A DNA stretch of 64,000 nucleotides from Candidatus Saccharimonadota bacterium. Lineage in GTDB: Bacteria; Patescibacteriota; Saccharimonadia; CAILAD01; BJGX01. The position numbers and the translations under genes were made by a program. The stretch spans positions 15,492 to 79,491 of the forward strand of contig JACPPH010000003.1 of NCBI GenBank assembly GCA_016191105.1, read 5' to 3'. Of the stretch, positions 31,843 to 34,274 are shown in pieces (positions within the stretch are counted from its first letter, which is position 1; the number at the start of each line of letters is the position of its first letter). The notes below the pieces were generated by a model. It had not been told where the DNA came from. It made no database searches and saw nothing but the letters and a program-made list of their open reading frames with translations.

Positions 31843-32002
31843 ACTTGGGTACGCGGGGGCGATGTTGTTGCACGCGTTCTTGGCGTCGGTCGATGCGGGG
31901 GCGGTGCTGGGCGCCGGTCGCCGCCCGGCGAATGTCTTCGTCGCTGGCCTCGCGGTCGACTCCCAGCACATCGTAGTAGGTCGGCTGATCCGTCTGAGCC
32001 AT
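31814..32002 (-). pseudogene. DnaJ J-domain N-terminal fragment (gene remnant) in GC-rich mosaic DNA
   Basis: MAQTDQPTYYDVLGVDREASDEDIRRA... matches the start of J-domains (DYYEVLGV...A..EIK.AYRKLA..HPD). It then diverges with no HPD motif, consistent with a frameshifted or degraded remnant. Confidence 0.3.
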
Positions 32003-32527
32003 CGCTGCTTTCGCACCCTTCTTTGTCCGCTACAGCGGCACGACAAGCGCGATGGCGCGTGAGCGCACCGTCTGACGCCCGACGCTACCAAACCCAGCCG
32101 GCCTGATCTCCGGAGCAGTTCCTTCCTGAGACGGCCACCTCCCGGAGAAACGCGAGCCCAGGTGCAATACGCTGGTGGGCTTGACCCGGGAGGCCGCCAT
32201 CATGGGGCCGGCATGGTCTCCAGACTCCGACTGCTCACCTCAGGTACGAAGAGTTTCGTGCGATTGTCGACTCGGGTGCACCGATCATCGCCAGCGCTCC
32301 CAAGCGGAGCAGTCAGGCTGATCCGCTGCGAGTCGTCGCTCGGGCGAAGAATGTCATTGTCAAAGACTCTCACGCCTATGTCGTTACAGGAATGGCAACG
32401 GACGGTACTGTCACATTGCGCAATCCGCACGGGACGGATCACCCAGAGATGATGTCCTTCGACACCTTTCGCCGTTTGTTTTGGCGAGTGCAATGGTGTT
32501 AGAATTGAATCGTAATGGAGACATAGC

Positions 32528-32845
32528 ATGAAGGATCATATGACGCTAAAGGGGAATCGAGTAAATCGTCTTGGGCACACCACTCTGTACCCACGAGATG
32601 CGGAGTTGCTGGATGGTGGCCTACTTGAGGCTGAGATTAGAGTTGGAAAGTCCGGAAATGATAGTTCCATTCGAGTTAAGGTTCGCGAAGGCTCCATTCT
32701 AGCGATTGAAGGCTCCCCAGATCTGGGCGTTGAAGAATCGCGATGGCGGGTGACCTCCATCACGGAGACCGACGAACCGGATGGCAACTTCGAGCCTGGC
32801 TCGCAAGAAGGCATCATTATCGAGCTGGATCGCGTCCAACCGTAG
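32528..32845 (+). CDS. Hypothetical protein (105 aa)
   Basis: GGAG 8 nt upstream of the ATG. Acidic, about 55% GC, no known domain. Confidence 0.4.
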   Translation: MKDHMTLKGNRVNRLGHTTLYPRDAELLDGGLLEAEIRVGKSGNDSSIRVKVREGSILAIEGSPDLGVEESRWRVTSITETDEPDGNFEPGSQEGIIIELDRVQP

Positions 32846-33125
32846 AGCAATGAGCCTATTCTGGCAGCTCGCCCGAAGCCGAACCATCGATCCTTGCTCG
32901 TCGACTGACGCCTCTCGGGGCAGTCATTAGGGTCGGCATGGTGAGCGCCCTAATGCGATGTGCGCAAACGACGTCGCCAAACCAACCACCGAAGCTTGCC
33001 GCCACGATGGCCGCAATCCCGTACACAACTATCCAGAACCAGCCCGAGAAATCGCCCCAGTCCCAGGCAATCTCGAAGCCTGTCGAGAGCTGAGTCACGC
33101 CATCGCCGGCCAGGAGGACAGTCTG

Positions 33126-34274
33126 ATGATCAAGCTGTGGCAGTTCGGCGTCAATCCTGACGACAAGAGCAAGGTGACCAGCGTGCTCGGCTACCGGTCG
33201 GTCGGATCCATCGGACTCATGAATAGCGTCATGGTGCTCATGACCCTTTGCGCAAGCTGGTTCTTGCGAAGCGCTGGTAGTTCTGGGAAATCGGCCAGCG
33301 ACAAGGCCGGAATCTATGCGCAGCTCATGTTCGGAGCGTTTGCGTTCACGACTGTCGTGTTCATCTGGGTCGTCCAACTCACGATAAAAGTGTATGCAGT
33401 GCTGAGTCCAAGTTTGTGTACTAATATAGTCTTAATGAGCAAAGACTATAAGCACAGCCCGCTAAAGCTAGTCCAAAATAGTAAGGTTGTATTCACTTCG
33501 TTTTCTAAGCACAGCTTCTATTTGCGTTCCGACATTTCACGCTTTGCATTATTGCAAGACTGTACGCCTATTAGCCCATTTATGAATTTCGACTACAACC
33601 TGGCCGGGCTGGTAGATAAGGACTTGATGAGGATTGCCAACAACTCGCTCATAAAAGTCTGCGACGAGCTTTGGGTTTTTGGTGAAGTTAGTGATGGTGT
33701 GTTGGTAGAGATTTATCTAGCCCAAAAGGCCAACAAAAAAGTACGCTACTTTCACAAGAGCCGTTCGCCTAGAGAGTTTAAAGAGGTTGAGGTAGATGAT
33801 GTTACGCTCGAAGATGTTTCGCCCTGGATGTGGGACTGGATCCTGGCTGGTAAAAATCTGTCGCGCTGGCATCCTCGCTTGCGATTTTACAAAAGCTATC
33901 CGATTGTTTACCCGGCTTACTCCAAACGCAACTTTTATTGGCAAATGCACATTAGTCAATTTTGCCTGGACAATCACATGATTCCGCTAAACCCTTTTAT
34001 GCTTTTTAGATATTTTTGGGGTGACAGCGTACCGCGCGAAAAAGTTTACACCGCCAACAATAGCATAGTGCGCATTAGTGGCGAGGTATGGTCGTTTGGC
34101 GAAGTTAGCGATGGTGTTTTGGCTGAGATTAAGATTAAAAAAGATGCTGGTGACAAAACTCGATATTATAAAATAGCCAATACCAATCCTGTTTCATTTC
34201 GAAAGGTTAGCCCAAGTGGCGTTGAATTTGAAACCGAAGATCAAGATTTAGAACAGTTTAGAAAAATACTGTAG
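33126..34274 (+). CDS. Membrane-anchored protein with two tandem nucleoside 2-deoxyribosyltransferase-like (DUF4406-like) domains; apparent GC-mosaic/chimeric gene
   Basis: AGGAGG 8 nt upstream of the ATG at 33126. The N-terminal ~100 aa are GC-rich with two TM helices. From ~33400 the gene drops to about 40% GC and encodes two repeats sharing ...PFM.F.Y.......L.......NS...V..E.W.FGEVSDGVL.EI..... The longest ORF begins at 32958. Confidence 0.45.
   Translation: MIKLWQFGVNPDDKSKVTSVLGYRSVGSIGLMNSVMVLMTLCASWFLRSAGSSGKSASDKAGIYAQLMFGAFAFTTVVFIWVVQLTIKVYAVLSPSLCTNIVLMSKDYKHSPLKLVQNSKVVFTSFSKHSFYLRSDISRFALLQDCTPISPFMNFDYNLAGLVDKDLMRIANNSLIKVCDELWVFGEVSDGVLVEIYLAQKANKKVRYFHKSRSPREFKEVEVDDVTLEDVSPWMWDWILAGKNLSRWHPRLRFYKSYPIVYPAYSKRNFYWQMHISQFCLDNHMIPLNPFMLFRYFWGDSVPREKVYTANNSIVRISGEVWSFGEVSDGVLAEIKIKKDAGDKTRYYKIANTNPVSFRKVSPSGVEFETEDQDLEQFRKIL

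Follow-up and report, generated by a model that had tools for sequence, protein, structure and literature searches.

A patch of truncated high-GC genes, probably foreign debris, between fmt and rbfA-infB in a Candidatus Saccharibacteria genome

The DNA analysed here is a 64,000-nt stretch (the window) of contig JACPPH010000003.1 from a Candidatus Saccharibacteria metagenome-assembled genome (MAG; GenBank assembly GCA_016191105.1), in which a GC-rich block sits directly 3′ of fmt. With a probability of about 0.7, this block is non-functional foreign debris of high GC content that was inserted between fmt and rbfA-infB, leaving the native DUF7768 gene on its right-hand side with its own start intact. 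The block contains the end of a calpain-family protease gene of actinobacterial type, followed by a complete 105-codon open reading frame (ORF105) in the position of a conserved partner gene. Both block edges cut outward-pointing genes, and one internal gene is cut too. The locus belongs to a kind already known, small horizontally acquired patches of truncated genes that mislead gene callers, and it is most likely inert.

The first-pass annotation of this stretch, made from the letters alone, had proposed decaying foreign DNA. The foreign composition and the truncations were upheld, but decay was seen as truncation only, since neither the protease tail nor ORF105 contains a frameshift or an internal stop.

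Composition and setting of the block

In 200-nt windows, the GC content rises from 0.48 (31700-31899) to 0.59-0.675 (31800-32299), lies at 0.47-0.605 until 33299, and falls to 0.39-0.45 from 33300 onwards, with the shift starting only a few bases from the fmt stop codon (31840-31842). The GC content of the whole block is 0.586, compared to a mean of 0.474 (sd 0.032) for the other 1.54-kb tiles of the window (z = 3.5), which bears out the jump after fmt that had been noticed at first pass. Codon-position profiles placed the GC content at third positions (GC3; GC1 and GC2 likewise for first and second positions) at 0.44-0.54 in the native genes, and at 0.62-0.76 in four pieces of the block. These are a J-domain-like reading frame on the minus strand (GC1/2/3 = 0.82/0.47/0.75), the protease piece in the plus frame (0.61/0.49/0.62), a minus-strand open reading frame (ORF) at 32856-33098 (GC3 = 0.67), and the plus frame from 33126 to about 33389 (0.47/0.43/0.76). 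The corresponding values for ORF105 are 0.64/0.42/0.54.

The GC content within the block is uneven, with values of 68, 66, 57, 53, 60, and 55% for its pieces. The protease and partner pieces have 53-57% GC versus 58-77% in their actinobacterial counterparts, just under the values of the lower-GC loci (58-63%). The spread would fit one heterogeneous donor segment, several donors, or uneven amelioration.

A different view is that the block is old native DNA of the lineage, such as a fast-evolving accessory region, whose GC content follows from amino acid composition. A second GC-rich patch (34300-34500), located directly after the DUF7768 gene, is explained in this way: the minus-strand ORF that it contains (34321-34689) is rich in Ala, Glu, Val, and Leu, has a GC1 of 0.8 and a GC3 of 0.55, and is not clearly foreign. 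The GC3 of ORF105 is native-like as well. In the J-domain, membrane, and N-terminal pieces of the block, however, the excess lies at GC3 (0.67-0.76) and not at GC1, the only identifiable homologues of the block are actinobacterial, and genes are truncated at both edges, and a native origin appears scarcely credible. The ORF at 34321-34689 had no Pfam or PHROG match. That the second patch continues the block, with the DUF7768 gene inserted between the two, was considered and rejected, because no plus-strand continuation was present and the GC excess falls on codon position 1 of the minus-strand ORF.

The gene order in this region is priA-def-fmt, then the block, and then a response-regulator gene, rbfA, and infB on the opposite strand. 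The NCBI proteins MBI2797979-81 are the products of fmt, of ORF105 (locus tag HYX70_01600), and of a long ORF (HYX70_01605). The same neighbourhood of priA-def-fmt and infB was seen in six further Saccharibacteria species. Four of them have 0.65-0.88 kb between fmt and infB, one has 2.1 kb and another 4.7 kb, and the gap contents differ; the window has 4.5 kb. Since both the length and the content of the gap differ among Saccharibacteria, the convergent fmt-infB gap is a variable site. The rbfA, response-regulator, winged helix-turn-helix, and DUF7768 genes had no tblastn match in the Saccharibacteria loci compared (species representatives L004-L009), and the block showed no similarity to the remaining window or to related Saccharibacteria loci. 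A conserved minus-strand gene of ~180-220 aa (MLKIDNSLLEEVGLG...) was observed in the fmt-infB gap of most of these relatives.

The source of the DNA is a metagenome, and it is conceivable that 1.5 kb of GC-rich DNA from another organism, for example an actinobacterium in the same sample, was misjoined into the contig. The sharp change in composition at both edges, the cutting of genes there, and the lack of any relative with the block would all fit such an artefact. However, an internal insert requires a pair of false joins, the second leading back into the same genome, and the flanks keep the conserved priA-def-fmt ... infB synteny. The block is found in two gene-call sets, from the NCBI MAG contig (80,421 bp) and from a Logan contig (70,143 bp, run SRR12113392), and the latter was identical to the window across the 12.9 kb compared. 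No paper turned up for this run accession. Further GC3-rich islands of the window, including an intact sulfatase gene (see below), point to recurring foreign high-GC DNA. Moreover, a genuine actinobacterial contig would not be expected to pair a protease gene that lacks its first 250 codons with a headless J-domain gene. A misassembly is therefore judged very improbable.

The protease tail and its partner reading frame

The actinobacterial affinity of the block was revealed by an exhaustive HMMER search of 1.84 billion representative proteins, using the open frame 32185-32499 as the query. Twenty proteins were returned at E ≤ 1e-3, and in the best match (E = 7.6e-11, 38% identity), query residues 8-105 align to the final 98 residues of a 353-aa protein. 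All of the homologues scanned (10/10) passed the cutoff of Pfam Peptidase_C2 (PF00648), and those with names are "C2 family cysteine protease" entries of Arthrobacter sp. B1I2, Jiangella endophytica, and a Mycobacteriales MAG. The homologue loci have a GC content of 64-74%. A hidden Markov model (HMM) of the full-length family (344 positions) matched the window at 32206-32499 with its positions 247-343 (95 bits), whereas positions 1-246 matched nothing in the six frames of 31700-33500, and the catalytic Cys region was not found. At first pass, the frame 32245-32502 had been compared to the His-loop and C-terminal part of papain-fold cysteine peptidases; the assignment to the C-terminal part of a cysteine protease, with its His, holds, and the family is specifically Peptidase_C2 of actinobacterial type.

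The catalytic His (SHAYVV) and Asn (RNPHG) are retained in the window fragment. Residues H59, A60, Y61, N76, and P77 are invariant in an alignment of 14 sequences and all are present, while the nearly invariant Trp after NP is replaced by His. The fragment also keeps the C-terminus of the family, FRRLFWRVQWC followed by a stop codon. The frame is open from 32185, has no start codon, and lacks the ~250 codons that bear the Cys. By alignment, the piece corresponds to the 3′ 28% of a calpain-type protease gene, without the Cys region, the N-terminal helical domain, and the start codon, and it is certainly a non-functional gene fragment.

Library scans alone gave sub-threshold matches for the protease tail (Pfam C70, E = 0.026; DUF4222, 0.03), a PDB sequence search with it found no match, and a metagenome scan with the alignment of the tail returned nothing. 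A pseudogene with a single frameshift was also considered and was rejected, because the addition of a Cys-like stretch (RCNTLVGL...) from another frame raised no score, and the full-length HMM confirmed that the upstream part is absent. Elsewhere, two proteins, P0128 (1294 aa) and P0130 (1025 aa), contain 7-8 tandem repeats of ~80 aa, each of which resembles the His-Asn segment of the protease fragment.

ORF105 begins 25 nt after the protease stop codon, on the same strand, and the Shine-Dalgarno-led small ORF reported at first pass is indeed present, with GGAG located 8 nt before the ATG. The NCBI call is 101 aa long (start at 32540), compared to 105 aa from the first ATG. In each of the seven actinobacterial loci with readable downstream DNA (from Actinomycetota or high-GC metagenome contigs), a same-strand ORF of 82-104 aa comes next after the protease gene, with a gap of -17 to +12 nt. 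Two of the four partner ORFs scanned passed the Pfam DUF6406 (PF19944) cutoff, and one more was flagged as a weak match. ORF105 itself had no Pfam match at E ≤ 10, DUF6406 included, and BLASTP against the partner of the closest locus was not significant. Alignment of ORF105 to the profile of the seven partners by hhalign gave P = 1.4e-4 and a probability of 53% over 63 columns, with a common core of the form ...V..G......G...WRV..(I/V). An HMM of the seven partners scored 13.2 bits on ORF105, a value reached by none of 2000 shuffles of ORF105 (maximum 9.2). Position and profile match together make it probable that ORF105 is homologous to the partner ORFs of the C2 proteases. The protease tail and ORF105, the second and third of the four pieces listed at first pass, would thus form one contiguous module rather than independent debris. 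The minus-strand ORF at 32856-33098 had been left unlisted.

In Actinomycetota, the gene pair consists of a calpain-family protease of ~305-390 aa with a helical N-terminus, followed by an overlapping or abutting DUF6406-like ORF of 82-104 aa. This pair is conserved and apparently undescribed, and a literature search found no mention of DUF6406. The last 98 residues of the proteases of Jiangella endophytica (WP_116947484.1) and Arthrobacter sp. B1I2 (WP_373461330.1) align end to end with the window fragment at 33-38% identity, and the shared features include the His and Asn motifs, the C-terminal FR.LFWRV..C ending, and a following same-strand ORF of ~100 aa with the G...WRV core. In contrast to the actinobacterial module, the window holds only 28% of the protease gene, without the Cys region, the N-terminal helical domain, and the start codon; its partner gap is 25 nt instead of an overlap or 7-12 nt, and its partner lies below the Pfam DUF6406 model. 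Upstream of the actinobacterial pair, an 86-aa helical ORF or a DUF3039 gene is often found, and an AAA ATPase gene lies downstream of the pair in two loci. The small upstream ORFs and N-terminal regions of the actinobacterial loci had no significant Pfam match, and no J-domain or membrane proteins like the other block pieces were found among the neighbours of the actinobacterial protease genes.

One homologue of the protease has a weak WXG100-like N-terminus (5.7e-4, below the cutoff), and in one locus a gene for an FtsK/SpoIIIE ATPase lies directly upstream of the protease pair. These features give only a hint of an effector-immunity role for the actinobacterial pair. Acquired orphan immunity genes would presumably offer a parallel to a start-less effector piece that is followed by a partner ORF. 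The arrangement in the window, in which a start-less 3′ piece of a putative effector precedes a complete small partner ORF and the full effector is lacking from the genome, resembles the orphan toxin C-terminus and immunity cassettes of polymorphic toxin systems (PMC3482391). Unlike in those cassettes, the break in the window does not coincide with a domain boundary or a recombination boundary but splits the protease domain itself, separating the Cys region from the His region. The surroundings of the block contain no parent toxin gene, array, or secretion system, and the toxin and immunity roles are putative.

Another possibility is that part of the block is functional: ORF105 might be a retained orphan immunity or inhibitor gene against an actinobacterial calpain-like protease effector, the 382-aa product of the long ORF might be a real membrane-anchored NDT-like protein (see below), or both. 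ORF105 is complete, it has a GGAG signal at the proper distance and, unlike its neighbours, a near-native GC3, and it lies where a conserved two-gene module has its partner gene. The WXG100-like N-terminus and the FtsK/SpoIIIE gene would be compatible with type VII secretion, and the 33126 start has an AGGAGG hexamer and two hydrophobic segments downstream of it. However, the protease tail, which is certainly dead, likewise has neither stops nor frameshifts in its 98 codons, and the intactness of ORF105 is therefore not evidence of selection. A word-index search of 5.8 billion proteins found no copy of ORF105 beyond the window's own protein; a PDB sequence search with ORF105 also found no match. 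The DUF6406-like immunity role is putative, the type VII link is weak, and the native start of the DUF7768 gene with its -10-like box speaks for an unfused product. Function in part of the block is accordingly considered unlikely. The narrower scenario, in which the block was captured from an actinobacterial host or neighbour and ORF105 was retained as an orphan protein that confers immunity to, or inhibits, a secreted calpain-like protease effector of Actinomycetota, appears quite unlikely. Were it true, the locus would record both a host lineage and a defence taken from the host's own arsenal.

The DUF7768 gene and the other truncated pieces

The frame 33126-34274 had been described at first pass as a gene with a Shine-Dalgarno signal, two transmembrane helices in its 5′ part, and two tandem repeats related to nucleoside 2′-deoxyribosyltransferases (NDT) in its 3′ part. 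The frame is open, the hexamer AGGAGG precedes its ATG, and hydrophobic segments are predicted at residues 25-47 and 62-95 of the product. The repeats were confirmed by matches to Pfam DUF7768 (PF24963; 55.1 bits vs a cutoff of 26, in two stretches, 1e-14) and to PHROG 355 (nucleoside 2-deoxyribosyltransferase, 6e-13). The two halves of the 279-aa part that carries them are 36% identical (E = 4e-28), which indicates a tandem duplication. An AF2 model of this part has a confidence (pLDDT) of 88, and NDT structures (8pqr, 2a0k, 7o62) were both the top Foldseek match and the matches of highest probability (0.96-1.0), with weak E values (3e-3 to 6e-2) and target-normalised TM scores of 0.47-0.54. 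A profile of the DUF7768 family found no PDB sequence.

Gene callers disagree on this gene: the NCBI call is 438 aa (32958-34274), the Logan call is 382 aa (33126-34274), and both exceed the ~278 aa of the family. A homologue search with the 438-aa form gave 161 proteins at E ≤ 1e-3, of which 119 were listed, with the window's own protein set aside. The homologues are from Patescibacteria, including Saccharimonadales, Gottesmanbacteria, and Woesebacteria. The alignments of those listed are confined to the final ~64% of the query; the proteins have a median length of 278 aa, and 99 of the 119 fall within 270-290 aa. Their first conserved motif lies at residue ~20, compared to residue 123 in the 382-aa call, and ten aligned homologues start at the Met that is encoded at 33435, while a few longer gene calls carry unrelated extensions. 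The family architecture of ~277 aa is thus exceeded by the 382- and 438-aa calls and is obtained from the start at 33435. Residues 104-382 are 56-73% identical to the listed ~277-aa homologues and share their two tandem repeats, as in other DUF7768, DUF4406, and nucleoside 2′-deoxyribosyltransferase-like proteins of Patescibacteria. In contrast to the listed DUF7768 proteins, the called gene of the window has an N-terminal extension of 103 aa (Logan) or 159 aa (NCBI).

None of the 119 listed homologues shares the N-terminal extension, whose 103 codons in the 33126-34274 ORF have no counterpart among them. GC3 is 0.76 in the 5′ part, versus 0.44-0.54 in native genes. The extension at 33126-33389 is foreign, as judged from its GC3, from the AGGAGG hexamer 8 nt before its ATG, and from its lack of relatives. 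At the start of the 438-aa form, the codon-position signal speaks for coding on the other strand. Both calls probably run too far into foreign DNA, the 382-aa one by 103 residues and the 438-aa one (HYX70_01605) by 159, and the real family protein would then be 279 aa long.

Between the foreign extension and the family start lie ~45 nt of AT-rich native DNA (33390-33434), which contain no stop codon and join the two in frame; the fused frame includes the stretch MIKLWQFGVNPDDK...VVQLTIK. Given an insertion, an in-frame junction followed by 15 stop-free native codons is estimated to arise in roughly 1/6 of cases. The ORF 33126-34274 is thus chimeric at the sequence level, as had been claimed for a gene fusion at the boundary, and the extension is absent from the listed homologues. 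A fused, membrane-anchored product is possible, but the native start at 33435 is intact and has a -10-like box 7 nt upstream, which suggests that the 279-aa protein is probably still produced independently of the extension.

No Shine-Dalgarno sequence is present at ATG 33435. Many genes in the window show this layout of box and start codon, such as TATACTAATATGT-ATG and TATACTAATAGCC-ATG, and a TAnnnT box was found 2-11 nt upstream of 13 of the 41 long ORFs, compared to 14% of all ATGs, as well as before the start of the closest homologue. The TAATAT box 7 nt before ATG 33435, together with this recurring layout, suggests that the native DUF7768 gene is transcribed from its own promoter into a leaderless or short-leader mRNA. 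TATAAT/TATACT-like boxes a few nt before an ATG that lacks a Shine-Dalgarno sequence were also observed at ATGs 40291, 50536 (-), 16653 (-), 6288 (-), 44099 (-), 24624 (-), and 60282, and the pattern as a whole suggests that leaderless or short-leader mRNAs may be widespread in this genome.

The remaining pieces have weaker or no identifiable kin. A minus-strand ORF (31814-32002) had been taken at first pass for the opening of a degenerating J-domain, and this proved to be real but weak. Its match to Pfam DnaJ (PF00226) has E = 5.9e-4 and 20.3 bits, below the cutoff of 27.8, and covers only profile positions 1-20; NCBIfam DnaJ models match at 1e-3 to 3e-2. At E ≤ 1, 27 PDB matches were obtained, nearly all of them J-domain proteins aligned at their N-terminus. 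The ORF has the helix I/II signature YYxxLGVxxxASxxEIRRA (TYYDVLGVDREASDEDIRRA), the match fails after helix I, where HRP stands in the position of HPD (...IRRAATGAQHRPRID...), and all three minus-strand frames lack an HPD tripeptide. The segment 31850-32002 is thus a probable, weakly supported J-domain remnant. Of the two membrane pieces, the minus-strand one is backed by a GC3 maximum in its frame between about 32930 and 33110. Both pieces found nothing in the plasmid collection and had no Pfam, NCBIfam, or PHROG match, and a word-index search of 5.8 billion proteins with the minus-strand membrane ORF and the N-terminal extension (concatenated with the protease tail) returned only the window's own proteins.

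Table 1. Features of the GC-rich block and of the adjoining native gene (window positions).
Feature	Position	Strand	Remarks
GC-rich foreign block	31850-33389		58.6% GC; flanked by the fmt stop codon and, on the right, by native DNA upstream of the DUF7768 gene; junctions placed by composition only
Probable J-domain-like gene start, first ~50 codons (MAQTDQPTYYDVLGVDREASDEDIRRA...)	31850-32002	-	Cut by the left boundary; ORF runs into the fmt 3′ end to 31814
Spacer, 66% GC, without assignable coding sequence	32003-32184		No protease-family match in any frame
Protease 3′ fragment, last 98 codons and stop	32206-32502	+	Calpain-family (Peptidase_C2), actinobacterial type; exhaustive HMMER search and family HMM
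ORF105, complete 105-codon ORF	32528-32845	+	Probable DUF6406-like partner gene; predicted all-beta; AF2 pLDDT 72.6
Small ORF, 80 codons from GTG 33098	32856-33098	-	One hydrophobic segment; no relatives found
AGGAGG, Shine-Dalgarno-like hexamer	33112-33117	+	8 nt before ATG 33126
Membrane-protein 5′ fragment, 88 codons	33126-33389	+	Two hydrophobic segments; GC3 0.76; truncated at the right boundary; frame continues into the native gene
AT-rich native upstream region	33390-33434	+	-10-like TAATAT at 33422-33427, 7 nt before ATG 33435; no stop in the upstream frame
Native gene, 279 codons, two tandem NDT-like (DUF7768) repeats	33435-34274	+	Start as in aligned homologues

Possible route of acquisition and neighbouring features

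The block resembles small horizontally acquired patches and pseudogene debris in its atypical composition, in the truncation of genes at both edges, in its location at a variable intergenic site, and in the longest-ORF calls that enter foreign DNA. It differs from a classical genomic island or an insertion-sequence remnant, because searches turned up neither an integrase or transposase nor a tRNA target or flanking repeats. The block ORFs had no integrase or transposase match in Pfam, PHROG, or NCBIfam, the only flanking repeats were short, at chance level, and unconvincing, and ARAGORN found no tRNA gene across the 64-kb window. Phage and plasmid collections gave no blastn match for the whole block and no tblastn match for several of its pieces.

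We propose that an exogenous high-GC piece of ~1.54 kb, or a few such pieces, entered the permissive gap between fmt and rbfA-infB by illegitimate (non-homologous) recombination, possibly in more than one event, and that deletion followed. By chance, the right-hand foreign fragment would have come to lie in frame with the native DUF7768 gene, with no stop between them, which would lead gene callers to report a 382- or 438-aa protein. The native gene would retain its start codon and a leaderless-type promoter and would most likely still yield its normal 279-aa protein. Saccharibacteria are epibionts of Actinomycetota, and natural transformability is recorded for some of their members, so that uptake of DNA from a host or neighbour is a reasonable route and an Actinomycetota-like donor may be envisaged. 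As the nearest protease relatives are only 38% identical, the donor is either unsampled or the transfer old.

Several observations weigh against the proposal of inert, inserted foreign debris. ORF105 is intact and could be functional. The protease relatives are distant, and no donor sequence was found; the J-domain piece, the spacer, and both membrane pieces had no relatives at all. No relative with an empty site was present in the collections, and metagenome scans with fmt gave only relatives of ≤ 52% identity. A generic sigma-70 promoter and terminator scan did not call the native promoter and gave nothing useful in the region. Finally, the foreign 5′ fragment combines a clean coding signature with an excellent start signal (AGGAGG 8 nt before the ATG), and a membrane-anchored fusion would be made if the region were transcribed from upstream.

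The locus changes no known principle, and what makes it interesting is its actinobacterial affinity, its intact partner ORF, and the protease-partner module that it brought to light. The foreign DNA has identifiable homologues only in Actinomycetota, to which the known Saccharibacteria hosts belong, and such scraps, together with the other GC3-rich islands of the window, could serve as candidate tracers of hosts or neighbours for uncultured lineages. The locus and the islands have some value as tracers because Jaffe et al. saw no evidence for lateral transfer between experimentally profiled Saccharibacteria-host pairs (PMC8406219).

The further GC-rich islands of the window are located at 60264-61907, 20445-20906, 19808-20260, and 3978-4352, all on the plus strand. 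The first is an intact sulfatase-family gene (547 aa; Pfam Sulfatase, 4e-24) with a GC3 of 0.70, and the ORFs of the other three had no Pfam match, with a GC3 of 0.74-0.79 in two of them. High-GC foreign DNA thus seems to recur in this genome. At the opposite end of the composition range, an AT-rich stretch (1-3863, 36-42% GC) contains a 1033-aa ORF on the minus strand (762-3863), which is read as a putative fused restriction-modification enzyme.

Introns in 23S genes are recorded for bacteria of the Candidate Phyla Radiation. In the window, the match to the large-subunit rRNA model spans 54613-58158 on the minus strand, that is, 3546 nt versus 2925 nt for the model, so that the 23S gene contains about 600 nt of insertion or insertions, possibly an intron. 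A 5S rRNA gene is located nearby, at 54181-54290.

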